Assembly (NCBI GenBank): GCA_963702215.1
Contig: OY969726.1
Coordinates: 1,681,533-1,745,532, forward strand
Source: an uncultured Bacteroidota bacterium
GTDB taxonomy: Bacteria > Bacteroidota > Ignavibacteria > Palsa-1295
DNA: 64,000 bases
Reading direction: 5' to 3'
Shown here: one piece after another, positions 8,995-62,300 of the stretch
Numbering within the stretch: the first letter of the stretch is position 1
Layout of the letters: each line of letters begins with the position of its first letter
Notes under the pieces: model-generated
The model's database searches: none
Told to the model about the DNA's origin: nothing
What the model saw: only the letters and a program-made list of their open reading frames with translations
Translations under genes and position numbers: made by a program

Positions 8995-9396
8995 CTACGC
9001 CCCGCCGGCCAGCGAAAAAATCAGAATGCCGAGCACGACGAGCGTGAGAACCACGTACATATAGTCCTTCTCAAAGAGGAACGCGAAGACGGAGACGGCA
9101 ACGCGCAGGATGGGCGTGAGAATAAGCAGAAGCATTCCGGTTTGGATGATGGCCTTTCCGTCGCCTGACACTGCTGCGCCGAGAATTCCCCAAACGGAAC
9201 GAAAGATGGCCGGTTCACTCACAAATTTTTGATATGAGGGATGCAGCAAATACGCCGAGGGCATATACACGCCAGCACCAAACACCACGACAACGATGGT
9301 CGCAATCACGCAGATGCGCAGCAGGTTGCCGATGAAAAGCTCGATCTTGTGGTACTCGCGAGTTTCGGTCGCGTCAAATGTTCCCGGTCGCGCCAT
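8995..9396 (-). CDS. DUF1634 family membrane protein
   Basis: 133 aa with 3-4 TM segments. It overlaps the TSUP gene stop by 23 nt; this pairing is typical of DUF1634. Confidence 0.6.
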   Translation of the reverse strand: MARPGTFDATETREYHKIELFIGNLLRICVIATIVVVVFGAGVYMPSAYLLHPSYQKFVSEPAIFRSVWGILGAAVSGDGKAIIQTGMLLLILTPILRVAVSVFAFLFEKDYMYVVLTLVVLGILIFSLAGGA

Positions 9397-10216
9397 TGTA
9401 AATCATCTCCAGTGCCAAGATAAAAATCACGACTGCAAAAATCCTTCGGAGCGTTTTTGGATCGGAACGTCCGAGAACTTTTACGCCCACGAGCGAGCCG
9501 CCGAGCACGCCGAGTACGACCGGCAATGCCAGAACAGGATCGATATAACCCCGGCTCAAATAAATTCCCGCGCTCGCCGCCGCCGTCACGCCGATCATAA
9601 AATTGCTTGTGGTCGTCGAAACTTTGAACGGAAGCTTCATCGCATGATCCATCGCGACGACTTTCACGGCCCCGCCGCCAATCCCAAGGAGGCCCGACAT
9701 GATTCCGGCAAACGCCGATATGCTAAACCCGCCCGCGACATTATGGACGCCATATTTCACCATCCGTCCCTCGTAGGGATATTCCGACGGCAGCTTGAGT
9801 TTTCGCGCGATCGGATCCGAGGTATGTTCCGGGTGATGCTCCAGGCGCGGCCGGCTGGACATCCAAGCAGAGTACAAGAGCATTACTCCGAAAATAATGG
9901 CGATAATGTCCGGCGAAAGAATCCCGGCGAGAAACGCGCCAATCAGCGCGCCAATCGTCGTCGCTATTTCGAGGAACATGCCGATGCGGATATTCGAATA
10001 GCCCTCTTTCACATACGCCGAAGCCGCACCCGACGAGGTAGCGATCACGCTTATGAGCGAGGCGCCGATCGCGTAGCGAATATTAACACCAAAGCCCAGC
10101 GTGAGAAGGGGAACGATAACGATGCCACCGCCCAGGCCGGTGAGTGAGCCCAGAAAACCGGCCAGCAGCGCTCCGCCGAAAAGAATGGCGTCAAATTCAG
10201 CAATGTTCAGGTGCAT
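9374..10216 (-). CDS. TSUP family (TauE/SafE) sulfite/anion exporter
   Basis: 280 aa polytopic protein with duplicated 4-TM halves and G-rich motifs (LTGLGGGIVIVPLL ... LLGIGGGAVKVVAM). Confidence 0.8.
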   Translation of the reverse strand: MHLNIAEFDAILFGGALLAGFLGSLTGLGGGIVIVPLLTLGFGVNIRYAIGASLISVIATSSGAASAYVKEGYSNIRIGMFLEIATTIGALIGAFLAGILSPDIIAIIFGVMLLYSAWMSSRPRLEHHPEHTSDPIARKLKLPSEYPYEGRMVKYGVHNVAGGFSISAFAGIMSGLLGIGGGAVKVVAMDHAMKLPFKVSTTTSNFMIGVTAAASAGIYLSRGYIDPVLALPVVLGVLGGSLVGVKVLGRSDPKTLRRIFAVVIFILALEMIYNGATGNI

Positions 10217-19275: not shown

Positions 19276-20034
19276 ATGGTAAAAAAAATCAAAGCGCCCA
19301 TCGTGAAACTGGCCGGCGCCGGCAGCGAGAACCTGGGCTGGCGCGGCGTCGAAATTCCCTTCGATGTCAAGAAGGCATTCGGCAAAAGTGGGCGCGTCCC
19401 GGTGCGCGGCGAAGTAAATGGATTCCCGCTGCGCACCTCACTATTTCCGCGCAAAGGCGAGCCGCATTTTCTTATGCTGAACAAACAAGTCCAGAAGGGC
19501 GCTGGGCTTTCCGAGCTTGGGCAAATCGTTTCCATCGAACTGGAACTGGATACGGAGGAACGAACCGTAGAGACGCCGCGAATCCTCGCAGAAATATTGG
19601 AGGATGAGGACGGCCTTCTCGAGTATTTTGAATCTTTCACCTATTCGACGCGCAAATTCATGGCGGATTCTATCTCGAACACTAAAAGCCCTGGGGCACA
19701 ACACCGGCGCGCCGAGCGAATCGCGATGATCCTCATGGAAATGCGCGATGGAGAAGCCCATCCACCGCCGATTTTGGAAGTGGAGTTCGCGAACAACCCG
19801 AAAGCGCGGAGCGGGTGGAAACGCATGTCCGTCGCACAACGCCGGGGACATTTGTGGGGAATTTTCTATTATCAAACCCCGGAATCGCGCGCGCGCCGGG
19901 GGAAGCAGGCGATTCAGGATATGGTAAAACATGCAGAATCAGATGCAACTCGAAGCAAGAAGCCTTTGTCGAACATCGGTAACGTCATTCCCGCGAAGGC
20001 GGGAATCGAGGCCCGGGGCCGAAAGGTGGAATGA
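19276..20034 (+). CDS. DUF1905 plus YdeI/OmpD-associated (bacteriocin-protection-like) domain protein
   Basis: N-terminal DUF1905-like beta region (GRVPVRGEVNGFPLRTSLFP) and a C-terminal YdeI-like helical region. Confidence 0.6.
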   Translation: MVKKIKAPIVKLAGAGSENLGWRGVEIPFDVKKAFGKSGRVPVRGEVNGFPLRTSLFPRKGEPHFLMLNKQVQKGAGLSELGQIVSIELELDTEERTVETPRILAEILEDEDGLLEYFESFTYSTRKFMADSISNTKSPGAQHRRAERIAMILMEMRDGEAHPPPILEVEFANNPKARSGWKRMSVAQRRGHLWGIFYYQTPESRARRGKQAIQDMVKHAESDATRSKKPLSNIGNVIPAKAGIEARGRKVE

Positions 20035-20093
20035 GGGATCTGGATTCCCGCATTCGCGGGAATGACATCGAGAGCACTTTTTCATACAGCCAG

Positions 20094-20804
20094 ATGATCA
20101 GAACTCTGAAATCCAAACTGCTTCTCGCTCAGCGCCAGCTTCTCCACCGGCTCTATATCAGCCGCGGCCGGGAGCGCACCGTGCTCGACGAGTTCCATAA
20201 GCTCTATTACTACTCGAACAATGCCGGCAAAACGTGGAGCGACACGTGGTGGCAGGGAACTCAAGTCCTGAAATGCCCGCTCGATCTTTGGATCTATCAG
20301 GAAATTATTTTCCGAACGAAGCCGGACCTCATTATCGAGACGGGAACCTACAAAGGCGGCACGGCGCATTTCTTCGCTTCGATGTGCGATTTGAATGAGC
20401 GCGGTGAAGTGATAACAATCGACATCGAGGAGTATCCCGGCAGGTCAACGCATCCGCGCATTACCTATTTGCATGGTTCCTCGACGGATGAAGCCATCGT
20501 TCACGGCGTCAGTTCGAAGGCCAAAGGAAAAGATTCCATTCTTGTCATACTCGATTCCGATCACAGCATGGCTCACGTTCGGCGGGAGTTGGAACTATAT
20601 GCGCCGCACGTGACCGCCGGGAATTATGTGATTGCCGAAGATACGAATATCAACGGCAACCCGGTGCTTCCCGAATCCGGCCCTGGCCCGAACGAAGCAA
20701 TTATCGATTTTTTGCGAACGCACAAAGAGTTCGAAGTCGATCGCTCAATGGAAAAGCTGCTGATGACATTCAATCCGGGGGGGTATTTAAAGAAAATTCG
20801 CTGA
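20094..20804 (+). CDS. CmcI-family (cephalosporin hydroxylase / rhamnosyl O-methyltransferase-like) class I SAM methyltransferase
   Basis: '…WQGTQVLKCPLDLWIYQEII…PDLIIETGTYKGGTAHFFA…' is the CmcI signature. The start was chosen at MIRTLKS; the ORF to 20031 overlaps the upstream gene. Confidence 0.7.
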   Translation: MIRTLKSKLLLAQRQLLHRLYISRGRERTVLDEFHKLYYYSNNAGKTWSDTWWQGTQVLKCPLDLWIYQEIIFRTKPDLIIETGTYKGGTAHFFASMCDLNERGEVITIDIEEYPGRSTHPRITYLHGSSTDEAIVHGVSSKAKGKDSILVILDSDHSMAHVRRELELYAPHVTAGNYVIAEDTNINGNPVLPESGPGPNEAIIDFLRTHKEFEVDRSMEKLLMTFNPGGYLKKIR

Positions 20805-20846
20805 CACGGAACTTGCTTTTCAGGAGTTGGGTTAGGAAGAAATACT

Positions 20847-20918
20847 ATGCGACGGAATTTTTCTCAGCCGGCATCGTTCGCGATGCATCATCATCATCAT
20901 CCAACACGCGGCTGGTGA
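20847..20918 (+). CDS. his operon leader peptide (23 aa, five consecutive His codons)
   Basis: SD AGGAAG, then ATG CGA CGG AAT TTT TCT CAG CCG GCA TCG TTC GCG ATG CAT CAT CAT CAT CAT CCA ACA CGC GGC TGG TGA. It lies 117 nt upstream of hisG and was absent from the ORF track because it is under 60 aa. Confidence 0.6.
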   Translation: MRRNFSQPASFAMHHHHHPTRGW

Positions 20919-20947
20919 TGGCTGAACTTATTCCATAAGTTTTTTCA

Positions 20948-20980
20948 AGCGCCGGCCAATGTGCCGGCGCTGCTGTTTCT
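20948..20980 (+). terminator. attenuator terminator of the his leader
   Basis: AGCGCCGGC-CAATGT-GCCGGCGCT (9-bp GC stem) followed by GCTGTTTCT. An upstream complementary pair, TCAGCCG…CGGCTGG, brackets the His codons and is a candidate pause/anti-terminator hairpin. Confidence 0.55.
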
Positions 20981-21034
20981 AATCGGTTTTTCGCAGCTTT
21001 GGTACATGGTCCCGGCCTCATTTAGAAGCTGCAA

Positions 21035-21919
21035 ATGACGATACAATCGAATTTATCAGACATAACCACCGACGCGATTCGCCTGGCGCTGCCGAAAGGC
21101 CGCATGCAGGAGGGAGTCTTGCGCCTGTTGGGCGATGCGGGCATCCGGGTTCACCAGGGAAGCCGCGGATACCGGCCAAGCATTTCGCTGGCCGGGTTCG
21201 AGGTTAAGATTCTCAAGCCGCAAAACATCGTAGAGATGCTGCACTTTGGCTCGCGCGATCTTGGTTTCGCCGGAGCCGATTGGGTTGCCGAGCTGGACGG
21301 CGAGCTTATGGAATTGCTGGATACAGGTCTCGATCCCGTATCGCTCGTTGCAGCAATGCCGCGTAGTGCGGACTTTCAGTCCGCGAATCCGCCGCTGGTT
21401 ATTGCCTCCGAATACCGGAACTTAACGGAACGATGGATCGCCGAATCCGGTATGCAAGCGACCTGCATTCGTTCCTATGGCGCGACCGAAGTGTTCCCGC
21501 CGGAAGATGCGGATTGCATTGTCGATATTACCGCAACGGGTGCGACCCTCCGGGCGAACGGCCTCGAAATTGTTGCAACACTGCTTGAATCTTCAACGCG
21601 CCTGTATTGCAATCCGCGTGCGCTCGACGAGCCCGGGAAGCGCGACTCGATCGAAAGCTTTACGCTTTTATTACGGTCGGTTCTGGATGCTCGCGACCGC
21701 GTGATGCTGGAATTGAATGTAACCGGCGAATCTCTCGAAGGCATCGTCCACCTGTTGCCGGCCATGCGCGAGGCCACGATCGCCACGCTCCATGGCAATC
21801 GCGGCTACGCCGTAAAAGCCGCCGTATGCCGAACATTGCTACCCACGCTCATCCCGCAACTCAAACGTGCGGGCGGAAGCGATATTATCATTTCGTCGCC
21901 GAGCCAAATCGTACCATGA
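21035..21919 (+). CDS. hisG: ATP phosphoribosyltransferase (long form with a C-terminal regulatory domain)
   Basis: 294 aa with a HisG catalytic core and a C-terminal ACT-like extension. Confidence 0.9.
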   Translation: MTIQSNLSDITTDAIRLALPKGRMQEGVLRLLGDAGIRVHQGSRGYRPSISLAGFEVKILKPQNIVEMLHFGSRDLGFAGADWVAELDGELMELLDTGLDPVSLVAAMPRSADFQSANPPLVIASEYRNLTERWIAESGMQATCIRSYGATEVFPPEDADCIVDITATGATLRANGLEIVATLLESSTRLYCNPRALDEPGKRDSIESFTLLLRSVLDARDRVMLELNVTGESLEGIVHLLPAMREATIATLHGNRGYAVKAAVCRTLLPTLIPQLKRAGGSDIIISSPSQIVP

Positions 21920-22980
21920 GCGTTGTGGAACAACTTATTCGAACGTCGATTCGCGCTTACCAAGCGGCACCGAAGGATCCCGCAATCGAGCTTGCGCTCG
22001 ACCGCACGGAGCCCCCAATTCCGTATCGCGCGATGAGCGGAAATTATTATTCATCGCCAACCTTCTGGTCACGCTATCCTTCGCCGCGTCCGCTCGAAGC
22101 CCAGCTTGCTCGCCGCCATAATATCCAACCCGAGAACGTTATCGTTACCGCCGGCGCGGACGAAGCGCTCGACCGGGCATGCCGCGCAGCGCTAACGAGC
22201 GGGAATGAATTGCTCACAACCACTCCTGCCTTCGAAATGATCGCAAAATACGCTTGCCTTGCCGCTGCGGAGATCGCGGACGTTCCATGGCTGGGTGGAG
22301 AATTCCCGATTGCGGATTTTCTCGATCGAATTTCATCGAAGACGCGACTTATTATTTTGGTCAGCCCGAATAATCCAACCGGGCAATCAATTCCATCCGG
22401 CATGCTCGAACGGATCGCACGGGAAAGCCCAAATATTCTTATCGTGGTCGATCTCGCATATGTCGAATTTGCCGAGATCGACCCTACGCTTGAACTTTCA
22501 CAGTTCCCAAATATTGTAATCGTTCGCAGTTTTTCGAAAGCATGGGGCTTGCCGGGGCTTAGGCTTGGCTATGCGCTCGGCGATAAGGAAGTCATTCAGG
22601 CGATGCGCGCGGCGGGAGGGCCTTATTCTGTCGCCGCTGGCTCGATGGAACTTCTTAGCAATCGTCTCGAACAATTCGAGGGCGAAATGCTCACGTACGT
22701 CGCGCGAATCAAACGGGAGCGAGCCATCACCGAGGAATGGTTGCGATCCAAGGCCATTTCGTTCATTCCTTCCCAATCAAATTTTATTCTGCTCTTCCCC
22801 GAAGATTCATCGAACTTTGATGAATTGTTCCGCTCATCCGGAATTGGAGCACGCTCCTTTGAATCTTCCGCTAACATTTCGGGAGCACGGCGGGTAACGT
22901 TACCCGGCAATACCGAGGCATTTGCACGGCTCCTATTCGCGCTGGAAACCTTCTTTCAATCACAATCTCTCGAATCATGA
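21916..22980 (+). CDS. hisC: histidinol-phosphate aminotransferase
   Basis: Start MSVVEQL at 21916, with an ATGA overlap on the hisG stop. PLP-lysine region '…IVRSFSKAWGLPGLRLGY…'. The upstream part of ORF 21607.. is an out-of-frame overlap of hisG. Confidence 0.85.
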   Translation: MSVVEQLIRTSIRAYQAAPKDPAIELALDRTEPPIPYRAMSGNYYSSPTFWSRYPSPRPLEAQLARRHNIQPENVIVTAGADEALDRACRAALTSGNELLTTTPAFEMIAKYACLAAAEIADVPWLGGEFPIADFLDRISSKTRLIILVSPNNPTGQSIPSGMLERIARESPNILIVVDLAYVEFAEIDPTLELSQFPNIVIVRSFSKAWGLPGLRLGYALGDKEVIQAMRAAGGPYSVAAGSMELLSNRLEQFEGEMLTYVARIKRERAITEEWLRSKAISFIPSQSNFILLFPEDSSNFDELFRSSGIGARSFESSANISGARRVTLPGNTEAFARLLFALETFFQSQSLES

Positions 22981-23564
22981 CACGCACAGCCACCATAGAA
23001 CGGACGACCCGAGAAACGCGAATCACAGGCCACGTGAATTTGGACGGAACGGGCACGTCCCAAATTAAAACAGGCCTCGGCTTCCTGGATCACATGCTCC
23101 ACACGCTGGCAAAGCATAGCCGCATCAATCTCACACTCGAATGTGCGGGCGATCTTACGGTGGACGACCACCACACGGTCGAAGATGCAGCCATCGCGAT
23201 CGCGGAAGCGATCAGCCAAGCGCTCGGAGATGGCCGCGGTATCGAGCGGTTCGGCGAGGCGCTCGTCCCGATGGATGAATCGCTGGTTCGCTGCGCGATT
23301 GATCTATCCGGCCGCCCCGCGCCCGTGATTGCGCTCGATCTTAATCGGGAACGCATTGGCGAGGTTTCCTGCGAGAACATCGAGCATTTCTTTCGCAGCT
23401 TCGCGAATACGCTGCGTTGCGCACTGCATCTCGATACGTTGCGCGGCGCCAACGATCATCACAAAGCAGAAGCGGCGTTCAAAGCATGCGCGCGGGCGCT
23501 GAAGCAAGCCATTTGCATTTCCGAATTCAACGATATTGCGAGCACGAAAGGATCCATCCGGTGA
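22977..23564 (+). CDS. hisB: imidazoleglycerol-phosphate dehydratase
   Basis: 195 aa with 'RETRITGHVNLDGTG…LDHMLHTLAKHS…' IGPD motifs. ATGA overlap with hisC. Confidence 0.9.
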   Translation: MTRTATIERTTRETRITGHVNLDGTGTSQIKTGLGFLDHMLHTLAKHSRINLTLECAGDLTVDDHHTVEDAAIAIAEAISQALGDGRGIERFGEALVPMDESLVRCAIDLSGRPAPVIALDLNRERIGEVSCENIEHFFRSFANTLRCALHLDTLRGANDHHKAEAAFKACARALKQAICISEFNDIASTKGSIR

Positions 23565-24169
23565 GAATAGTTACGATCGTTCCAACCGGCACTGCGAATC
23601 TCGCCTCGGTGATAACGGCACTGAGGCGCGCTGGTGCCCAGCCGATGCTTGCGGCTGGCCCGCTGGACGTGCTCCATTCCCAAGCTTTAATACTTCCGGG
23701 CGTTGGCAATTTCGGTGCGGCGATGGCGAAGCTCGAAGCGGATGGCACCGCCGAGACTCTTCGCGAGAAGCTTCTCGATGGCACGCCGGCGCTTGCCATT
23801 TGCCTCGGAATGCAAATTCTCTTTGAAGCAAGTGAAGAAAATCAGGATGTTCACGGACTTTCGATCTTGCCGGGCCGGTTCGGGCGCTTCCCAAATACTG
23901 TTCGCTCGCCGCATGTGGGATGGAATACCGTTGAGCCGATCGGTGCAGCGAAGTTCCTGCGTCCGGGCGATGCCTACTTTACCCACTCCTATCGATTGAC
24001 TGAATTGCCGCCAAACTCGATCGGAGCGATGACCGGCTATGGTGCGCCATTTGTTTCCGCCATCGAGTGCGGGAATATCCTCGCCTGCCAATTCCACCCG
24101 GAACTTTCCGGTGCGTGGGGAATCGAGCTGCTCCGACGATGGATCGATGCGGAGGGTATGCCATGCTAA
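23561..24169 (+). CDS. hisH: imidazole glycerol phosphate synthase, glutaminase subunit
   Basis: GTG start overlapping the hisB stop (GTGA). Class I GATase motifs (…LILPGVGNFG…, …ICLGMQIL…, …QFHPE…). Confidence 0.85.
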   Translation: MRIVTIVPTGTANLASVITALRRAGAQPMLAAGPLDVLHSQALILPGVGNFGAAMAKLEADGTAETLREKLLDGTPALAICLGMQILFEASEENQDVHGLSILPGRFGRFPNTVRSPHVGWNTVEPIGAAKFLRPGDAYFTHSYRLTELPPNSIGAMTGYGAPFVSAIECGNILACQFHPELSGAWGIELLRRWIDAEGMPC

Positions 24170-24915
24170 AGGCTCGAATCATGCCCTGCCTCAATTGTGA
24201 TGCGGGCCGCGTAGTGAAGGGCATTCGGTTTGCGAATCTTCACGATGCCGGCGATCCGGCGCAACTTGCAACGCGCTATGAGGCCGAAGGCGCGGACGAG
24301 ATCATCGTTCTCGATATCTCCGCAACCCTCGAAGCGAGGCAGCACCATGCCGGAACGATTCGCGCGATTCGGGATGCGATATCGATCCCAATCACCGCGG
24401 GCGGCGGCATTCGGACGCTCTCCGATTGTGAAGCATTGCTCGAAGCCGGAGCGGATAAGGTGAGCGTCAATAGCGCCGCGCATCGCACGCCGGATTTGAT
24501 CGATGCCATTGCAAACCGTTTCGGAACCCAATGCGCTATTCTCGCCATCGACGCGCGCCGGAATGAGAAAGAATGGCGAGTTCTCATCGATGCAGGACGC
24601 ACGCAAACCGAACGCTCGGTTACCAATTGGGCTTGCGAGGCAGCCGAGCGAGGCGCGGGAGAAATTCTGCTCACCAGTTGGGACCGCGACGGAACCCGGC
24701 TGGGTTACGATCTCGAACTCTTGCGAGCCGTCACTTCTGTGGTGGACATTCCTGTCATCGCTTCAGGCGGCGCCGCTAATGCGACGCATTTGGCGGAGGC
24801 ATTCCATGCAGGAGCATCGGGGCTGCTTGCGGCTTCTCTTTTTCACGATAACGATTATTCCATTTCCAAAATCAAGCGAAAACTTTATGATTTCGGAGTG
24901 CCAATCAGAATATGA
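24163..24915 (+). CDS. hisF: imidazole glycerol phosphate synthase, cyclase subunit
   Basis: Start MLKARIMPCLN at 24163, overlapping the hisH stop by 7 nt. Classic HisF N-terminus and (beta/alpha)8 motifs. Confidence 0.9.
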   Translation: MLKARIMPCLNCDAGRVVKGIRFANLHDAGDPAQLATRYEAEGADEIIVLDISATLEARQHHAGTIRAIRDAISIPITAGGGIRTLSDCEALLEAGADKVSVNSAAHRTPDLIDAIANRFGTQCAILAIDARRNEKEWRVLIDAGRTQTERSVTNWACEAAERGAGEILLTSWDRDGTRLGYDLELLRAVTSVVDIPVIASGGAANATHLAEAFHAGASGLLAASLFHDNDYSISKIKRKLYDFGVPIRI

Positions 24916-26184
24916 TTATTCCTTCTATCGATATTGAATCCGGCAATGCCGTGCAGCTTGTGGGCGGCGAGAAGAAAGCGATTGACGCCGGCGATCCACG
25001 AGTCATCGCGCGGAAGTTCGGGATTGTGGGCGAAGTGGCGCTTATCGATCTCGATGCCGCGCGCGGGATCGGCTCGAACGAGGCCATGATCGAAGAACTA
25101 TTGCCAATGGGGGCGTTTCGCTTTGGCGGTGGCATTCGTTCCTACGAGCAGGCCGTCCGTTGGCTCGATCGCGGCGCTACAAAGATCATTCTGGGAACCG
25201 CGGCGAGTGCGAAACTCTTGCAGCAATTACCACGGGAACGAACCATCGTGGCACTCAATGCGCGGCATGGTGAGGTTTATGATGAAGGCTGGCAGCGTGC
25301 AACCGGGGCGAGCGTGGCCAGCCGGATGCACGAGCTCGCGCCTTACACTGGCGGATTCCTCGTAACACTCATCGAACGCGAAGGCCGAATGGTGGGAACG
25401 GACATTTCCGTCATTCAGAAACTTCTCAGCGCCACCGGAAATGCTCGCCTCACGATCGCCGGGGGGATTTCCTCGGCGGACGAAATTTCCGAGCTGGACC
25501 GGATGGGCGTGGATGCGCAAGTGGGCATGGCGCTCTATGCTGGACGATTCGATTTCGCGAATGTGTACGCGGTCATGCTCCGCACCGATCGGCCGGATGG
25601 GTTGTGGCCAACGGTTGTCGCCGATGAAGACGGAATCGCACTCGGCCTTACCTATTCGAACGAAGAAAGCCTTCGATGCGCAATCAACGAACAGCGTGGG
25701 ATTTATTTTTCACGCACGCGCGGCCTGTGGCGAAAGGGCGAAACCTCCGGCAACACGCAGGAATTGCTTCGCATCGATCTCGATTGCGACCGCGATACAC
25801 TTCGGTTTACCGTGAAGCAAATCGGGGAAGGATTCTGCCACTCCGGGACGGACACGTGTTGGGATAACCTTCGTGGCATTCGCGCGCTCGAAGAACGGAT
25901 CGCGGAACGAATGAAATCGCCGGAAGAGGGCTCTTACACGAACAAGCTCCTTTCCTCCTTGGATTTTCTCTCCGCGAAATTAGTCGAAGAGGCGCAGGAA
26001 CTTTCAGAACGCCATCGGCCAAGAAGCCATCTACGAAGCGGCCGATTTGCTTTATTTCACGCTGGTTGCAATGCGCAAGCAAGGCGTTTCGATTGCCAAG
26101 GTTGCACGTGAATTAGACATGCGCGCCCTCAAACTCACGCGGCGACCGGGACTTCCCAAACATGGTAACGCTTTTGCAAAATAA
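24912..26184 (+). CDS. hisA/hisIE: fused HisA (ProFAR isomerase), HisI (PR-AMP cyclohydrolase) and HisE (PR-ATP pyrophosphatase), with an apparent +1 frameshift near 26005
   Basis: HisA N-terminus (MIIPSIDIESGNAVQLVGG…) runs to about residue 230. HisI follows (…GLWPTVVADEDG…CWDNL… with zinc-ligand cysteines). HisE follows (…EGSYTNKLL…LVEEAQEL). The canonical HisE continuation 'AIGQEAIYEAADLLYFTLVAMRKQGVSIAKVARELD…' is in the +1 frame and ends at TAA 26182-26184. The in-frame continuation to 26111 is arginine-rich nonsense. Confidence 0.7.
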
Positions 26185-26193
26185 AAAGGCAGG

Positions 26194-27447
26194 ATGATGC
26201 TCAAACAGATTACTATAGAAGAAGCACGTTCGCTCGATAGAACAGCTTCGCTCAATGATGTTTTACCGAACGCGGTTCAAATCGTGGAGGACGTTCGAAC
26301 CGGGAAGGATCTCGCGTTGCGCAGGCTTGCGGAACGATTTGGCGATCTTGCGCCGAATGCTCCGCTGATTATCGAGCGGGAGGAACTTGCGCGCGCGCTC
26401 GATGCGATACGTTCCAGCGAGCGAGCGATTTTGGAACGCACCGCGACACGAATCCGTCGTTTTGCCGAAGCACAGCGCGCGGCACTCAGCGATATAAAGG
26501 TTTCCGTAGAAGGCGGTTTCGCCGGACACACTGTCATGCCGCTCGAACGCGCCGCATGTTATGCGCCGGGTGGACGGTATCCGCTGCCCTCGAGCGTCCT
26601 AATGACGGCGGTCACTGCGCGCGTGGCCGGTGTAAATGCGGTTTGGGTTGCTACGCCGAAGCCATCGGACATCATGCTCGCCGCAGCCGCCGTTGCAGGG
26701 GCAGATGCGGTGCTCGCTGTTGGCGGCGCCCATGCCGTTGCTGCACTTGCATATGGCACCGAAAGTATTCCGCAATTCGATACAATCGTTGGGCCCGGGA
26801 ACCGGTGGGTTACCGCAGCGAAGCAATTGGTTGCGGGTATCGTAAAAATCGATATGCTCGCAGGCCCATCCGAACTTGCGGTTGTCGCCGATGACGCCGC
26901 AAATCCCGCCTGGGTAGCCGCCGATCTTCTCGCGCAAGCCGAGCACGACCCCGATGCACGCGTATTTTTGATTGCGTTTAGCGACCGAATTGTGCGATTG
27001 GTCGAGCGAGAGCTTGAATCACAATTGACGGATTTGCCGACGCAAGCCATAGCGCGCGAAGCCATCGGCAACAGTTTTTGTCTGATCGTGAATAGCGTGG
27101 AAGTGGCGGCGGAACTTTGTAATCAGATTGCGCCGGAACATCTTTCGCTGCAATTGGAACAGAAATCCATCGAGCGCTTGCACCCCATGCTTCGGCATTA
27201 CGGTGGATTATTTATCGGCGCTGGAAGCGCGGAAGTGCTTGGCGACTATGGGATCGGGCCGAATCACGTGCTGCCAACGCAAGGTTCCGCACGCGCGCGC
27301 GGCGGCCTTTCCGTATTCGATTTCCTGAAAGTTCAGACGTGGATGGATGTCTCGCGGGTTCCAGCTGGAGTATCCGAGGACATTGAGGCCCTCGCGCGCA
27401 TCGAGGGCTTGGAAGCGCATCGCCGCTCAATGGCGATGCGCGCTTAG
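26194..27447 (+). CDS. hisD: histidinol dehydrogenase
   Basis: 417 aa with HisD motifs (…AGPSE…, …QAEHD…, zinc-ligand His/Asp region). Confidence 0.9.
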   Translation: MMLKQITIEEARSLDRTASLNDVLPNAVQIVEDVRTGKDLALRRLAERFGDLAPNAPLIIEREELARALDAIRSSERAILERTATRIRRFAEAQRAALSDIKVSVEGGFAGHTVMPLERAACYAPGGRYPLPSSVLMTAVTARVAGVNAVWVATPKPSDIMLAAAAVAGADAVLAVGGAHAVAALAYGTESIPQFDTIVGPGNRWVTAAKQLVAGIVKIDMLAGPSELAVVADDAANPAWVAADLLAQAEHDPDARVFLIAFSDRIVRLVERELESQLTDLPTQAIAREAIGNSFCLIVNSVEVAAELCNQIAPEHLSLQLEQKSIERLHPMLRHYGGLFIGAGSAEVLGDYGIGPNHVLPTQGSARARGGLSVFDFLKVQTWMDVSRVPAGVSEDIEALARIEGLEAHRRSMAMRA

Positions 27448-31056: not shown

Positions 31057-31166
31057 AAGAGTGAGTGTTCGTTAATATTCCGCCTGTTTTTTTAGATTCA
31101 TTCGGCGGCCGGCGGGGAGCAGTGCAAGTAGCGTACCGTTGGCCAGAAAGTCCGTATTTTGTACAG

Positions 31167-31514
31167 ATGAAACTACCGAATGCAGAGCAAGCCATAGTCA
31201 TGCTTGAGAAACTTGAAGGTTATTGCCTTAATCCGGGACACGAGAAAGGCAAGCACAAGGCCCGGGTCTTTTGGCGAGCACTCGGGATTGGCCGGGAGCA
31301 CTCATTGCTGTTGAGAACGGTTCTCCTCGAACGTGCCGTGACCGCAGATGCGATCAAGATCGAGTCGAACAGATTCGGAGATCATTATTTCGTTGATTTC
31401 ATCTTGGAACACGAGGGTAAAAAGGCGGAGATTCGTAGTAAATGGACTGTTCGAACAGGTGAGAATTTTCGTCGGCTTGGAAGCTGTTACGTTAAGAGAA
31501 GGATAAAGGAATAG
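31167..31514 (+). CDS. DUF6883-like protein (upstream partner of a two-gene module)
   Basis: '…KLEGYCLNPGHEKGKHKARVF…GDHYFVDFILEHEGKKAEIRSKWTVRTGENFRRL…'. The family assignment is from memory. The start was chosen at MKLPNAEQ; the ORF extends to 31065. Confidence 0.5.
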   Translation: MKLPNAEQAIVMLEKLEGYCLNPGHEKGKHKARVFWRALGIGREHSLLLRTVLLERAVTADAIKIESNRFGDHYFVDFILEHEGKKAEIRSKWTVRTGENFRRLGSCYVKRRIKE

Positions 31515-31516
31515 AT

Positions 31517-31741
31517 ATGGTGGAAAATCTAAAATTGCTGGATGTCGTCGCATTGTTGGAAGACGTTCCCGAACTCAAGCTCCACCGCGGAGAAGTTGGA
31601 ACCATTGTGGAAGAATTCGAGGACGGTTCGGTTGAAGTCGAGTTTGCAGACAAGCGAGGCGTGGCATACGCTTTCGCGGATTTACCAAAGAGCAAGCTCT
31701 TGGCGCTTCATACGGTAGATGTGGCGGAAGAGGTAGCGTGA
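31517..31741 (+). CDS. DUF4926 domain protein
   Basis: 74 aa with 'LLDVVALLEDVPELKLHRGEVGTIVEEFEDGSVEVEF', the characteristic DUF4926 architecture. It starts 2 nt after the upstream stop. Confidence 0.65.
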   Translation: MVENLKLLDVVALLEDVPELKLHRGEVGTIVEEFEDGSVEVEFADKRGVAYAFADLPKSKLLALHTVDVAEEVA

Positions 31742-31962
31742 ATACCTCAATCAATGAATTAGACGTGGTAGCACTCCTGGAAGATATTCCAGAGGACAAA
31801 CTTGTTCGCGGGGATGTTGGAACTATTGTGGACGATTCCGGAACGGGCCTCTATCTCGTCGAATTCGCCGACCGGTACGGACAAACCTACGCGATGCCTG
31901 CCTTGCGCGCGGAACAGTTCCTTGTGCTGGATCACATCGATAATGAGAAGGTGGAAGTGTAA
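31738..31962 (+). CDS. DUF4926 domain protein (tandem paralog)
   Basis: 74 aa with 'ELDVVALLEDIPEDKLVRGDVGTIVDD…YLVEF'. The GTG start has a GTGA overlap with the previous stop. Confidence 0.65.
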   Translation: MNTSINELDVVALLEDIPEDKLVRGDVGTIVDDSGTGLYLVEFADRYGQTYAMPALRAEQFLVLDHIDNEKVEV

Positions 31963-34182: not shown

Positions 34183-34292
34183 TCTAAATTACAAAATTAC
34201 GACCGCACACACGATTGCGCGTCCACGATTGACCGGGACGTGAACGCGGAAAATGGGAAGTAGGTGCGCGAGGGGCAAATTATGTCGTAAAT

Positions 34293-34635
34293 TTGTGTCG
34301 CCTGATGGTGATTTCAAAAGACGCGACGATTCCCGTTGAGAAAATTCGAGACTATCTCCTGAAATGGATCGAGAAGGATGATAAGTCCGGATATTTGAAA
34401 CACGCGGGATATTCTAGTGAGAATTACCAGCAATTAATCGATGATATTCGGGAGCAACTTCTGCCGGCCGAGGCCGTGTTGCAGGAACAAAGGCAGGATG
34501 GAGATCTGTATAGAATTCGAGGCCGCCTTCGAGGACCAAAACGGCCGGGAACTTCCAGTAAGAACCGTTTGGCTTGCGAGCGAAGGAGCTAAACCACCTT
34601 TTATCACGCTTGTACCGGATAAGGAGAGAGGATAA
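34293..34635 (+). pseudogene. DUF6883-like gene disrupted by a single-base frameshift near 34520
   Basis: The N-terminal frame (34293..) reads '…IPVEKIRDYLLKWIEKDDKSGYLKHAGY…QDGDLYRI'. The conserved C-terminal block '…EFEAAFEDQNGRELPVRTVWLASEGAKPPFITLVP' is in the +1 frame (ORF 34441..34635). Both halves align to the intact copy at 31167..31514. Confidence 0.5.
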
Positions 34636-34880
34636 TGACCTACGAACTCTACTCACAAATTGCACTTACAGGGGAGATCCCGGAGCACGGCCTCAGGCGT
34701 GGCGATATTGCTCGTGTGGTCGAAAAAATCCCGCCGGAAAGTTCCGATCCCACATCCTATGTGCTTGAAGTGTCTAACGCACTCGGTGAGTCCATGAACG
34801 TCATCATCGTGAAAGCCAACCAGATTGAGCCGCTGCAAAACGACGAGTATTTCTCCGTGCGGCACATGGAGGCCGCGTAG
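34635..34880 (+). CDS. DUF4926 domain protein
   Basis: 81 aa with 'IALTGEIPEHGLRRGDIARVVE…YVLEV'. TAATG overlap with the upstream partner, and an AAGGAGAGAGG Shine-Dalgarno. Confidence 0.6.
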   Translation: MTYELYSQIALTGEIPEHGLRRGDIARVVEKIPPESSDPTSYVLEVSNALGESMNVIIVKANQIEPLQNDEYFSVRHMEAA

Positions 34881-34971
34881 ACCCGTTGCGCGGTACATTC
34901 GGGAAGGAATTCGGCTGGATGCGTGGAGGTAACATTACTTAGGGCGCCGAAGAATAGGAAGTATTTAACTT

Positions 34972-35382
34972 ATGAAATTCTTAGTGATGGTTGCAACCCC
35001 GTTGGCGTATTTGGTGATGTTATCATCGCCCGTCATGTCCCAAACTATTCGGGATGCCCATTACAATGTCGAATTTCAAGTGAGCATAGACGGGACGGTG
35101 AAGGACGCCCATTACAACAGCTACTGGCATATCAAGTCGGACGGAACTATTCGGGATGCCCATTATAATACGATTGGTTACCTCAAGAATGGCGTGGTTG
35201 AAGATTCCCATTATAACACGCTCGGCCACGTAAAAACGAATGGCGACGTTCTGGATGCCCATTACAATACGATTGGTCATCTTAAAGACGATGGGACGGT
35301 TCTCGATGCGCACTACAACACCATCGCGCACGCGCCCGGGATTCGAAAGGAATGGACCGCCGCCCTTCTTTTCTTTTTCTGA
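34972..35382 (+). CDS. secreted protein with six tandem ~17-aa 'DAHYN' repeats
   Basis: Signal peptide (MKFLVMVATPLAYLVMLSSPVMSQ) followed by the repeat DAHYN(x)2(IG/..)(x)3-4(D/N)G(T/V)(V/I)x, six times. It lies in a locally lower-GC region. Confidence 0.55.
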   Translation: MKFLVMVATPLAYLVMLSSPVMSQTIRDAHYNVEFQVSIDGTVKDAHYNSYWHIKSDGTIRDAHYNTIGYLKNGVVEDSHYNTLGHVKTNGDVLDAHYNTIGHLKDDGTVLDAHYNTIAHAPGIRKEWTAALLFFF

Positions 35383-39204: not shown

Positions 39205-39396
39205 TTATTGCGCGCGCTTGCCACGCGCACCGGCGAACCACACAATCACTGCCACCGCGACCATTATCCCGCCGATGATGGCCCATTTGCTATCGTTCGT
39301 CATCACGCTGCCGTGAATTACGCCGATGCCCTGTCCGAACCAGACGAGGCCGATGAGGCCGATGATTATTGTAACTACGCGCCAAAGAGTTCGCAT
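39205..39396 (-). CDS. small two-TM hypothetical protein
   Basis: 63 aa with two hydrophobic helices and a basic C-terminus (ARGKRAQ). Confidence 0.35.
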   Translation of the reverse strand: MRTLWRVVTIIIGLIGLVWFGQGIGVIHGSVMTNDSKWAIIGGIMVAVAVIVWFAGARGKRAQ

Positions 39397-39442
39397 TTCA
39401 GACTAACCTTTAATTCGTGGAGTATCATTCCGGCATCGCAGC

Positions 39443-40768
39443 CTACCTTCTGGACCACCCCTTGAGGCGCCGGCGTTCGGCCTGGCTCATCTCGATGGGC
39501 GGCGGGGGCGCATAGCCTTCGCGGATCGTCCGCTCAATTTCGGTTCCCACGCGCTTTTCGATTTCGCGCATTAATGGTTCCTCTTCGGGGCCGACGAGGG
39601 TGATCGCCACACCGGTCTTCTCGGCCCTTGCCGTGCGGCCCACGCGGTGAACGTAATCGTCCGGCGACATCGGCGGCTCGTAGTTGATGACGTGCGTAAT
39701 GTCCTCGATGTCCAGACCGCGCGACGCCACATCGGTTGCGACGAGAATATTAAACTTCCCAGCTTTGAAATTGGCAAGCGCTTTGGTTCGGTCGCTTTGC
39801 GAAAGATCGGAATGCAGTTTTGTAACGCTCATTCCGGCATGGGCAAGGACGTGCGCTACGCGATCCGCATCATGTTTGGTGCGGGTAAAAATGAGGGTTC
39901 GCATCGGGATCGATTCTTGCCCGTCGGTCGTAATTTCCTCCTGCGAAAGTTCCTTTAGCAATTTTAGTAATAGTTCCGGCTTCTTCAGCCGCATCACGGA
40001 ATAGACCTTTTGTGTAATCCCCTCGGCGGGTTTGCGCCGACCGCCGACCTCGATCAGCGTCGGATCGTGAGTGAGGCGGCGGGCGAGTTCCTCGATGTCG
40101 TGCGAGAGCGTAGCGGAAAACATCAGCGTTTGGCGGTCATGCGGGACGTGGGCGGTGATGCGCTTGATCTGCGGCAGGAAGCCCATATCGAGCATACGAT
40201 CGGCCTCGTCGAGCACCAGAAACTCGACGACGGCGAGCGAAACGACGCGCTGATTGAGGAGGTCGTTCAGCCGGCCGGGCGTGGCGATGAGGACGTCGCA
40301 GCCGCGGGAGAGTTCCCGCTCCTGGGGCCGCTGCCCGACGCCACCGAAGATGACGACGGCGCGCAGTCGGGTTCCCTGCGCGAAGCTGACGGTCGCCTCG
40401 TGAATTTGCGTAGCGAGTTCCCGCGTGGGGGTGAGCACGAGGACGCGCGGCTGCTCCTTATGCTTCGGCGGTGGCGAGCAGATAAGCGCATCCAAAAGTG
40501 GTAACATAAAAGCGGCGGTTTTGCCGGTCCCCGTTTGGGCGATGCCGATGGCATCGTGCCCCTCTAAGATGAGGGGAATTGCTTCCCTCTGGATTGGAGT
40601 CGGCGTGGAATAGCCAATCTGCTGCACGCGTTCGCAGATTTCAGGGATGAGGCCGAGTTCGAAGAATGGGAGCTTTTCTGTGGTTGCCTCACGCTCCCCC
40701 TCCGCTTCGGTGTGGTGAGCCACTGGCTCGCTGTGGTGAGATTCGGCGTTGTGATTCTTTTTTGTCAT
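39443..40768 (-). CDS. DEAD-box ATP-dependent RNA helicase
   Basis: Q-motif (…TPTPIQ…), Walker A AQTGTGKT, DEAD, SAT and HRVGRTAR motifs. Both termini are His/charge-rich. Confidence 0.9.
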   Translation of the reverse strand: MTKKNHNAESHHSEPVAHHTEAEGEREATTEKLPFFELGLIPEICERVQQIGYSTPTPIQREAIPLILEGHDAIGIAQTGTGKTAAFMLPLLDALICSPPPKHKEQPRVLVLTPTRELATQIHEATVSFAQGTRLRAVVIFGGVGQRPQERELSRGCDVLIATPGRLNDLLNQRVVSLAVVEFLVLDEADRMLDMGFLPQIKRITAHVPHDRQTLMFSATLSHDIEELARRLTHDPTLIEVGGRRKPAEGITQKVYSVMRLKKPELLLKLLKELSQEEITTDGQESIPMRTLIFTRTKHDADRVAHVLAHAGMSVTKLHSDLSQSDRTKALANFKAGKFNILVATDVASRGLDIEDITHVINYEPPMSPDDYVHRVGRTARAEKTGVAITLVGPEEEPLMREIEKRVGTEIERTIREGYAPPPPIEMSQAERRRLKGWSRR

Positions 40769-53773: not shown

Positions 53774-53813
53774 GCCGTAATCCTCTTGGTACTCATTAAG
53801 CTGTACCGACTTG

Positions 53814-53885
53814 CTGGGGCGGGAGGATTCGAACCTCCGAATGCCGCCTCCAAAGGGCGGTGCCTTACCGCTTGGCGACGCCCCA
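53814..53885 (-). tRNA. tRNA-Gln (anticodon UUG)
   Basis: The reverse complement reads TGGGGCGTCGCCAAGCGGTAAGGCACCGCCCTTTGGAGGCGGCATTCGGAGGTTCGAATCCTCCCGCCCCAG. Acceptor pairs TGGGGCG/CGCCCCA, anticodon stem CCGCC/GGCGG, loop CUUUGGA, T-arm GGAGG-TTCGAAT-CCTCC, discriminator G73. CCA is not encoded. The sequence is nearly identical to E. coli tRNA-Gln in the first 30 nt. Confidence 0.9.
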
Positions 53886-59312: not shown

Positions 59313-62300
59313 TTACTTGCTCAGGGTCAGCTTCTTCGAGAGCGTGACGGTCTGTCCGTCGGCGCCGGTGGCTATGAGTTCATAGACATAGCTGCCGTTG
59401 GCGAGTCTCGAGAGATCGAGCGTTACGTTCTGCTCGCCCGCGCCATAGCTCGCGTTCGTCACCGGAGCGCTCACCACCTTGCCCGTCACATCCATGACGC
59501 GCAGTGTAACTTGCGAGGCTTCCGGAAGCGTGAAGCTCACGTCCGCCGCGCCACTCGTCGCCGGGTTCGGATAGCTCTGGCCTAGCGTGAACCCAAGCTC
59601 CGCCGCATCGGGGCCAAGTTCGATCGCGTTCGAATACGTCTTCGCCCCGCTCTGATCGATCGCTACCACGCGGTACGTGTAGCTCTTCGTCAGGTCGATC
59701 GTTGCATCCGTATAGGCATACTGCGTCTCGGTTATCGGCCGCACTGACGGAACCGAGTTTCTCCCACATCGGCTGCACGTCCGCGCCTGAGGCTGCGCCC
59801 GTACCCGGAACCATTTGTTCCACGTCGTACTGCGCCACATCCTTCTGCTGCGCGATCTGCCAGGAGATCAGGGCGTTCTGGCCCACATGCTCCGCCGTCG
59901 CATTCACGAACTCCACCGGAAGGATCGTACCCGCATGGCTGCGGAAGAAGGCGAAGGCTGCCGCCAGCGTCCGAGTCGTGCCGCTCGTCGTGTCCCCAAA
60001 CCCGCCCGGTATCGTTTGCACCGGATCCGACCAGTCGAACCCGTAGAATACCGTGTTGATCGTCGGGTTGTAGTACGTCGTACCCGCGCCGGAGTCCGCC
60101 GAACTGTTCGGATGCATCCGGTACGTATAGGCATAGCCCGTTACTTCCGGTCCAACTAACGGCGTCGAGAACGACGGTTTCACAACGTCCGGCGATGTCG
60201 AGTTCAGGCTGTCCGGATATTTCCAGAACGCCGGCTGCTGACCATCGATCCAGTTGTGGTACACCGCGCCGTCCATCATCGGATCGTTCTGCACGAACCG
60301 CGTGTGCATGTACGATTGCAGCCATTCCGTATCCGTCACCGGGATGAAGCCCGGCGCGTTGTTCGGCATGACGTAACCGTTATAGTAGGCAACGTTCTGA
60401 CCGGCTATCACCATGCTCTTCTTCGCATAGTCACGGCCCTGCTGCAGGTAGCGCTCCACTTCCTGCGTCTCCTTGAAGGAAAGACCACCCTGACCCGTCA
60501 CCTGACCGTAGGACGGGGCGATCGTCGGATCGCCGCTCACCCAGACCAGCGTCCACCACGGGGTGTAGTCGATGTCCGTCGAATCCGAAAGCCCGTCCGG
60601 AGCATTACGATCCAGCGTATCGAACGGTACGCCCAACCGGGTCAGCGCAAGCTTCACCGAGTCCAGATTCTGAAGCCCAAAGGCCGTCGCACCGTTGTAG
60701 CTTACCAGCACCGCGTTCTGCTTCAGCAATACGTGGAAGACCTTGACCTGCGAATTGTTCACATTGTCCTGATCCGTCGGTACGCTCACCGTTAGACGGA
60801 ATACGCTCTGCGATACCGTGTTCGGGTTGAGGGTCGGACCCTGCCAGACTACTTGCTGCGTCTCGCTCACGTCCCAGTTCATTGCCGACGAGTTCGAGTT
60901 GAAGATCGTCGTCCATGGGCCGCCATTGATCGCCTGTTCCACCTTCGCGTTCACCGTACGGCCAAAGACCGACTGGCTCGAAAGGTTCTTCACCTGCGCC
61001 GTGATCCACAGCGGATTCTCCGTCGTCACCAGCGAGGTGTCCGATGTCTCCGAGAAGCCCGCTGGCTGCGTGATCGACATCACCGCAAGGTCGTTCGTGT
61101 ATTGGAATCCATCCCATTCGTCCGCGCCGATATCGACCGACTGCGCGCTCAGACGCTGGTCGCCATCGAAATCGCGAGTCTGCGTCGCCGTCCCGAGCCA
61201 CGCCCCATTGCCCGAGGCCGCGCTTTCGATATACGTCAGCGCAGAAGGCATGTGAAGCGAATCCGTTCCAACCGCGAACCGGGGATCCCCTGTCAGCGAG
61301 TGCAGATCCTGACCCACATACGAACGCCAGTCGTTCAGCGTGCGGAAATAACGAGTCTGGAAGACCGTACCATACCGGACGTCATATTCCACTAACGAAT
61401 CGAATACGTTCGTGCCGCGAAGATCGAACAGGTTATAATCCGAACTGATCGCGCTCGCAAACGGTCGCGGAACCTCCAGCCAGTAGTTCGAATACGGACC
61501 CGAGCCGGTGTTCTGCAAAATGTTGTTCCACAAGAACACGTGCTTCGCGAACTGCACCTTGATATTGGCTAACGCGTTGTTCGTCGAGATCGAGTTGTTG
61601 AAGATCGAATCCTGGTCCGCAGAATACTGCGAGCCCGCCGTCGTCATCGCGATCGGGTACGAGCCAAACGTCCCTTCTTCTTCTTCGCCACCGCCGGCCT
61701 GAAGATCGAAGATCATGTTGTTCGTGATGCGGTTCTGCGTTTCGATCGGTAACGTCGATTGATCCCCAGGGCCCCCATTGCCGACCTGGTAGATCGTCAC
61801 CGCCTGCTGGATCGCTACACCATAGGCATCGCCACCCACCGAACGAATGTCGTGAATACGGTTGGCATCCACCCAGCAGCGAACCACGTTGCCCGCCGTG
61901 TCCGGAACTACGCCAAGCGTGTCCGTAACCAGCGTCAGAGGAACCGTCGTCTGAGGGCTTTCGATGCCATAGACGTTCCAGTTCATCCCCGTCGAACCCG
62001 CGTTCGCCGAGTTCACGTTCGTGATCTCGTTGTGCGATACCGTCAGATCCTGTTCGTTCGTGAACGAGATACCCGCAAACGAGAGCGGATCGCTCGAGGT
62101 CCCGATCGTATTCCGGGTGAACGTGTTCGAATTGTTACGCCACACGATATACTGCTCCGAGCCTAAGTTGAACATGTCGTGCAGCCCGTGATCGTACAAG
62201 CCATACTTCGCATTGCCAAGCTCGCAGTTGTTCACCACGATATGGTTGATCGGAATCGTGTCGTGAACCAACTGAAGGTAAATCGACCGGTTCTGCTGGT

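Follow-up and report, generated by a model that had tools for sequence, protein, structure and literature searches.

Does a single gene of an uncultured Bacteroidota bacterium (GTDB lineage Ignavibacteria; Palsa-1295) encode three consecutive enzymes of histidine biosynthesis, and is the reading frame of the third really broken? The gene lies in a 64,000-nt stretch of contig OY969726.1 (assembly GCA_963702215.1; hereafter the window, with coordinates counted from its first base), where a sequence-only reading had placed a HisA-HisI-HisE fusion with a C-terminal frameshift at 24912–26184. We consider it likely that this interval is one trifunctional HisA-HisI-HisE gene of a large conserved family, that the frameshift is an assembly error (an extra A at 26008) concealing a true product of 423 aa, and that asparagine readings at active-site positions in the same operon are miscalls.

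As assembled, the open reading frame (ORF) runs from 24912 to 26111 on the + strand, encodes 399 aa and carries PF00977, PF01502 and a partial PF01503, so that HisA is indeed joined in frame to the HisI and HisE modules. The HisA (ProFAR isomerase) domain occupies residues 1–222 (24912–25577, +), with PF00977 (His_biosynth) matching residues 1–213 (E 1e-37, 130.2 bits against a cut-off of 23.6), and the HisI (phosphoribosyl-AMP [PR-AMP] cyclohydrolase) domain residues 223–322 (25578–25877, +), with PF01502 (PRA-CH) at residues 246–317 (E 1e-25, 89.5 bits). The first half of HisE (phosphoribosyl-ATP [PR-ATP] pyrophosphohydrolase) follows in frame 0 as residues 323–366 (25878–26009, +), aligned to PF01503 (PRA-PH) positions 2–42; coverage of that profile ends at position 42 of 86, and the score of 20.1 bits is below the cut-off of 21.3. 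The second half lies in the +1 frame (26010–26184, +; …AIGQEAIYEAADLLYF…AFAK, stop codon 26182–26184). When one base is removed, the product lengthens to 423 aa and the PRA-PH domain becomes complete (residues 324–404, 60.7 bits). The profile check proposed with the fusion gave a mixed outcome: PF01502 was found, PF01503 exceeded its cut-off once the frame was repaired, and TIGR00007 (HisA) ranked at the top at 130.9 bits, under its equivalog cut-off of 228.95. The other top-ranked NCBIfam model, NF002747 (HisIE), likewise stayed below its equivalog cut-off (142.6 against 187 bits), as did NF010112 (126.8 against 243), and for the N-terminal domain HisA models outranked those of HisF (25.7) and PriA (65.4). 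With these sub-threshold scores, the assignment of functions draws on domain family, fold and context and not on an equivalog call, and the fusion is, judged by its profile scores, a divergent HisA/HisIE subfamily.

That the N-terminal domain is HisA/PriA-like is borne out by both sequence and fold. Among solved structures it is nearest to actinobacterial PriA/HisA (E 1e-18), and the C-terminal part to HisIE 6j22 (phmmer, E 2e-22). An AlphaFold model built from 35 family members (mean predicted local distance difference test score 91.5, predicted template modelling [TM] score 0.84) is confident across the junction, and in Foldseek it superimposes on PriA/HisA with TM 0.82–0.85 and a root-mean-square deviation of about 2 Å, and on HisIE 6j22 with TM 0.83; no solved chain found by Foldseek covers more than half of it. 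Like S. coelicolor and M. tuberculosis PriA (2vep, 2x30, 3zs4) and S. enterica HisA (5a5w), the first domain is a (beta-alpha)8 barrel with GGGIR and AGG phosphate-binding motifs, but it lacks about 20 residues relative to stand-alone HisA, shares 24–29% identity with PriA/HisA and, in our reading of the alignment, has an invariant Glu (E157) throughout the family at the Asp of the PriA 'KDG'. The strand-1 catalytic Asp is present as the invariant D7, aligned with PriA D11, and the family Asp at 116 aligns with PriA D130, where the window has Asn; we take these two residues to be the equivalents of T. maritima D8 (strand 1) and D127 (strand 5). Residues 223–405 are colinear with HisIE of E. 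coli/Shigella (6j22) and plant HISN2 (7bgm), PRA-CH preceding PRA-PH, with the three HisI cysteines and the HisE EEAxEL...EAADLLY motifs conserved: C292, C309 and C316 are invariant in the family alignment, and the EEAxEL motif and the glutamate/aspartate motifs of HisE are invariant or conserved. The fusion differs from HisIE in its complete upstream HisA barrel, joined without a linker such that the last helix of the barrel continues straight into the highly conserved SDRPDGLWPTVV of HisI, and, compared with 6j22, in a loop between the two HisE motifs that is shorter by a few residues.

On these sequence-based predictions, one polypeptide would carry out steps 2, 3 and 4 of the pathway: HisE would convert PR-ATP to PR-AMP (step 2), HisI would open the ring to give ProFAR (step 3) and HisA would isomerise ProFAR to PRFAR (step 4), which the neighbouring HisH/HisF would consume. 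Translation of hisA-I-E would be coupled to that of hisF through their ATGA overlap. HisI and HisE are dimeric enzymes, so the fusion would probably dimerise via its I and E modules with two HisA barrels, and co-localisation may aid handover of the labile ProFAR. If PR-ATP is in fact passed through to PRFAR by a single polypeptide, no earlier his fusion would have included hisA, and channelling of ProFAR could be studied in a naturally occurring system.

The fusion is genuine and common in databases. With the repaired 423-aa protein as query, the best 120 database matches measured 398–434 aa; 118 of them carry all three Pfam domains, colinear with the query at 56–78% identity over 95–100% of its length, and two (P0001 and P0014) are C-terminally truncated. 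P0001 corresponds to the 399-aa ORF of the window itself and comes from a 3.58-Mb NCBI/ENA contig, and the closest species genome among the matches listed is a 'Bacteroidetes bacterium' metagenome-assembled genome (72% identity). A 141-residue fragment across the HisA/HisI junction retrieved 40 clusters at E<=1e-30 from a 50%-identity library, and most of its top 150 matches span the junction in one stretch. Recurrence in related genomes removes the possibility, raised with the original observation, that this region is an assembly chimera, and the fusion proved to be anything but rare: in a scan of one genome per species, at least 592 fusion stretches were confirmed, mostly in Planctomycetota, Myxococcota and Alphaproteobacteria. 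Among 80 loci fetched for comparison, counted by record title, about 37 are from Planctomycetota (mostly Phycisphaerales), 18 from Myxococcota, Bdellovibrionales or 'Deltaproteobacteria' and 15 from Alphaproteobacteria, the rest being scattered.

The +1 frame at ~25996–26184 reads ...AIGQEAIYEAADLLYFTLVAM...AFAK and then stops, and the frame-0 continuation to the TGA at 26109–26111 is spurious. Exact-protein look-ups with the 399-aa ORF, hisD, hisF and hisG gave no match, and hisB alone led to near-identical contigs, of which L083 and L084 encode a protein identical to the window HisB. L083 belongs to the Logan assembly of run ERR11594399; across 7078 aligned bases it shares 99.87% identity with window 19323–26400. 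At the frameshift site (26007–26008, +) the window has TTTCAGAACGCC against TTTCAGACGCC in L083, with one extra A in the window; L083, which has no A at 26008, encodes an intact 423-aa ORF with the complete HisE domain in a single frame, equal to the repaired window protein except for E366D. In L002, a soil relative 78% identical to the window, the protein alignment is ungapped and the DNA alignment shows one extra window base near 26005–26010. The tail in the +1 frame shows no decay, being identical to L083 (indel aside) and about 72% identical to L002. Among 82 sequences a frame change between the I and E domains occurs in the window only, and in 0 of the 81 other loci. The earlier statement that the last ~55 codons of HisE are in the +1 frame and are recovered by a shift at about 26005 is correct as an observation on the sequence, but the shift is not supported as a genuine feature of the gene.

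The comparison also works in the opposite direction, as L083 has a private 1-nt deletion (CCC to CC at about 2309, corresponding to window 21632) that splits hisG into pieces of 222 and 71 aa, while hisG of the window is intact. This indicates that indels in these assemblies are assembly-specific, each in a different his gene. A further indel probably exists within the window itself. A crude coding-potential scan combined with Pfam showed that a very large ORF running off the window end (59380–63999, - strand) has its Por_Secre_tail domain, for type IX secretion system sorting, in another frame (ORF 59313–59867); the shift falls in mid-domain at ~59721–59742 and is probably a missing base in GATAACC. 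Two proteins of the window carry such sorting tails, in keeping with a host from the FCB (Fibrobacterota-Chlorobiota-Bacteroidota) group.

One other locus, L001, at first sight resembles the window: its protein P0014 (398 aa, 69% identical) ends at nearly the same place. A conserved truncation was considered and rejected. In L001 (~9140–9719) hisA-I-E stops after 'GELAK', a few codons from the shift in the window, and gives way to a reverse-strand fragment that reads, from its sequence alone, as a succinate-dehydrogenase flavoprotein gene; hisG is split as well. L001 is probably chimeric, or a long-read contig prone to errors, and that the two breaks fall so close together is likely due to chance.

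The substitutions between the two near-identical assemblies follow a pattern of their own. All seven (20007, 20069, 20336, 24135, 24193, 25985 and 26254) are G/A exchanges (C/T on the other strand) inside YCGAY. CTCGAT accounts for five of them, with the A form in L083 at 20007, 20069 and 20336 and in the window at 24193 and 26254; differences thus affect 5 of the 27 CTCGAT sites and 2 of some 7050 other positions (Fisher p 1e-11), a rate of about 20% versus 0.03% elsewhere, or roughly 700-fold. Nanopore Kit 14 sequencing of methylated bacterial DNA is reported to produce motif-bound purine/pyrimidine ambiguity with the minimal context 'RA/TY', which varies between assemblies of one sample (PMC11610573). 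The window-L083 pattern appears to be a good fit to such methylation-linked nanopore errors, and suggests that a methylated CTCGAT/ATCGAG motif causes base-call errors. Miscalling at every TCGA was considered and rejected, as the window holds 601 TCGA and 110 CTCGAT and a fraction of sites is affected. Across the whole window CTCGAT is slightly over-represented (110 observed, 85 expected), and two palindromes are strongly under-represented, GTCGAC with 2 observed against 22 expected and CTCGAG with 20 against 62, as expected if restriction systems target them.

Several codons of the operon are caught in this pattern. When the His proteins of the window were compared with their orthologues at near-invariant columns, deviations were very few, yet two of them, in HisF and HisA, hit catalytic aspartates. 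Codon 11 of hisF (24193–24195) is AAT, Asn, in the window, against Asp (PCLD) in L083 and 77 of 77 aligned relatives; Asp11 and Asp130 are essential catalytic residues of HisF (PMC5919458). Codon 21 of hisD (26254–26256) is AAT within CTCAAT in the window, against GAT within CTCGAT in L083. These two, HisF N11 and HisD N21, are most likely G-to-A miscalls at CTCGAT. Codon 116 of HisA (25257–25259) is AAT within CTCAAT in both the window and L083, so that the strand-5 catalytic Asp is absent as assembled; the position is Asp in the 118 family proteins and in 82 of 82 aligned relatives, and the sequence is CTCGAT in L001, L002 and L003. HisA N116 is probably a systematic miscall shared by the two assemblies. 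The CTCGAT calls carry a practical warning: a G-to-A call turns a conserved Leu-Asp pair (CTC GAT) into Leu-Asn and mimics an active-site mutation. Uncorrected, the annotation would suggest a potential histidine auxotroph with catalytically dead HisF and HisA.

The strongest alternative is that these lesions are real. A very recent strain mutation would then have removed the second metal-binding helix of HisE (EAADLLY), and together with the HisA and HisF Asn residues it would mark a his operon under inactivation in a cell that obtains histidine from its community. The lesion is present in the deposited 3.58-Mb contig, HisA N116 occurs in two assemblies, the three changes strike functionally critical places in one operon, and a G-to-A change at CpG would also arise naturally when 5-methylcytosine is deaminated. 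Near-identical L083, however, has an intact ORF and HisF Asp11, the sequence 3' of the shift has not decayed, and the other His proteins show 0–1 deviations at near-invariant columns (0 at 70 such columns in hisG). General decay of the operon was rejected separately, with 0–2 deviations per protein at these columns, no more than in relatives. The ~700-fold CTCGAT excess runs in both directions between the assemblies and is, to our knowledge, far beyond known deamination hot-spot effects, and the second mid-domain frameshift in the window points to assembly quality. We regard real mutation as unlikely.

Set against the reading of the frameshift as an assembly error are several points. It rests on assembled contigs; L083 comes from a different run and could represent another strain, in which case a very recent strain-specific frameshift is possible. 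HisA N116, being in both assemblies, could be a real substitution of the catalytic Asp, and if it and the frameshift were both real, the gene would be in the process of being lost. As to function, both the HisA domain and the HisIE region remain under the NCBIfam equivalog cut-offs, and substrate channelling and dimerisation are inferred only. We nevertheless read the hisE frameshift as an error, given the intact L083, the lack of any frame change in the 81 other loci, the undecayed tail, the YCGAY pattern and the second frameshift. Indels and motif-bound miscalls are error signatures that we associate with long-read data.

Programmed +1 ribosomal frameshifting, for example by a prfB-like CUU_U slip at 26001–26004 that would regulate production of full-length HisA-I-E, is highly improbable. 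CTT_T does precede the shift window, AGGA lies just upstream and the +1 product is exactly of family length, but none of the 81 loci, including 99.87%-identical L083 and 78%-identical L002, changes frame, the site has no in-frame stop or rare codon for stalling, and a single additional A, located 4 nt past the putative slip site, is the simplest difference from L083. That the fusion itself arose in assembly or annotation, a lost stop codon or a chimeric contig having merged separate hisA and hisIE genes, is refuted. We found nothing in favour of this idea other than the absence of the fusion from textbooks; the same colinear architecture with the SDRPDGLWPTVV junction recurs in the 118 proteins and 80 loci, which stem from several phyla and from independent projects, and the structure model is confident across the junction.

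Accepting the frameshift as an assembly error, a one-base correction gives a complete histidine pathway in the window, and its hisA-I-E is an ordinary family member; what stands out is an under-described fusion family with eukaryotic relatives, not the frameshift. The remark that hisA-hisIE is not a textbook arrangement was fair: reviews of his fusions list hisA/hisF elongation, hisIE, hisNB, hisHF (HIS7) and hisIED (HIS4), and hisA is not among the seven fused genes that they name (PMC1963479, PMC7284861, PMC8305728, PMC10138114). Like fungal HIS4 (HisI-HisE-HisD), hisNB and HIS7 (hisHF), the fusion places consecutive or related his enzymes in one polypeptide (PMC1963479); unlike HIS4 and the other described fusions, its partner is HisA, at the N-terminus. 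Literature text searches by names of the fusion returned nothing relevant, and the sole mention found is in a 2024 survey, which records 'HisA/F fusions with HisIE' in four archaeal metagenomic assemblies (PMC11237513). Database annotation of the bacterial fusion proteins gives only phosphoribosyl-ATP diphosphatase or HisIE. Although databases contain the architecture and one paper mentions it, it has been neither characterised nor described for bacteria. A fusion covering steps 2, 3 and 4 in hundreds of mostly uncultured species deserves a proper description.

More broadly, the arguments seem to us evenly balanced on whether histidine biosynthesis has in the A-I-E module a building block of its own kind, moving laterally and overlooked by reviews, which travels with a G-C-B-H-F-AIE-D operon across Planctomycetota, Myxococcota, Alphaproteobacteria and a clade of the FCB group, and has apparently seeded larger multi-enzyme proteins of eukaryotes.

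The A-I-E module heads larger eukaryotic proteins, with 47–58% identity over the junction fragment (P0136, P0141, P0153, P0188, P0228). The arrangements seen include A-I-E-D-C-HAD (1501 aa in Protostelium nocturnum, 1586 aa in a metagenome), A-I-E-G (777 aa, Clastostelium recurvatum), I-E-D-C (1242 aa, Arcella intermedia) and X-A-I-E (911 aa, the diplonemid Sulcionema specki). P0121 (912 aa) and P0122 (862 aa) are bacterial-type sequences in which a single ORF extends from hisA-I-E into hisD. They may represent genuine A-I-E-D fusions, or else reflect the loss of stop codons or gene-calling artefacts; P0121 shares a 90% cluster with the normal 419-aa P0003.

In the window the fusion gene belongs to a compact histidine operon on the + strand (21035–27447) whose order by Pfam assignment is hisG-C-B-H-F-[A-I-E]-D, as the sequence-only reading had stated. 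It begins with hisG, a long-form ATP phosphoribosyltransferase of 294 aa (21035–21919; PF01634 and PF08029, HisG with HisG_C), followed by hisC, a class I/II histidinol-phosphate aminotransferase of 354 aa (21916–22980, ATG start at 21916; PF00155). The 195-aa hisB product (22977–23564; PF00475, IGPD) is an imidazoleglycerol-phosphate dehydratase only, without a phosphatase domain. Next come hisH, the class-I glutamine amidotransferase subunit of 202 aa (23561–24169, GTG start at 23561; PF00117), which is also called as a 202-aa gene at the matching place on L002 and L083, and hisF, the cyclase subunit of 250 aa (24163–24915, ATG at 24163; PF00977, 239.5 bits). Last in the operon, beyond hisA-I-E, is hisD, a histidinol dehydrogenase of 417 aa (26194–27447; PF00815, 434.7 bits). 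The overlaps reported for every junction from hisG to hisA all match the sequence: ATGA for hisG/hisC and hisC/hisB, GTGA for hisB/hisH, 7 nt for hisH/hisF and the 4-nt ATGA for hisF/hisA. With all His proteins as tblastn queries, no second hisA, hisI or hisE was found within the 64-kb window, and the window and each fetched locus have one A module only. Rfam detected no leader or riboswitch upstream of hisG; the sole Rfam/ARAGORN match in the window is a tRNA-Gln (anticodon TTG, 53813–53885, - strand).

This layout is largely shared by the family. By tblastn, B-H-F-[AIE] is near universal in the 80 loci, and most of them also have G and C before this block and D after it. The family pattern is G-C-B-H-F-[AIE]-D, some loci having an HAD phosphatase between C and B. 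The enterobacterial order is H-A-F-IE, from which the family differs in placing F before A, and with F first, hisA adjoins hisIE. Alphaproteobacterial loci (L011, L017, L021, L026, L029, L046, L057, L068 and others) have G-B-H-F-AIE without adjoining hisC or hisD. An HAD-family hydrolase module of ~650 nt (PF00702/PF13419), likely a histidinol-phosphate phosphatase, sits between hisC and hisB in 20–23 fetched loci and is seemingly continuous with the end of hisC (e.g. L006, L009, L064, L075). Neither the window nor its closest relatives have this module, and their operons contain no phosphatase.

Elsewhere in the window, clusters of small ORFs at 31–32 kb and 34–35 kb were examined as candidate frameshifts and rejected, being real small genes: DUF6883 followed by DUF4926 at 31065–31962 and again at 34233–34880 (+), the first set containing DUF4926 twice. 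For the DUF6883 at 34233 the match is confined to profile positions 6–82 of 110, and a gene for a 5-fold beta-flower protein (34969–35382) follows the second set. Two short coding-like ORFs at 39205–39533 (-), for which no family match was found, lie in other frames directly downstream of a DEAD-box helicase gene (39443–40768) and may be its frameshifted C-terminal tail.

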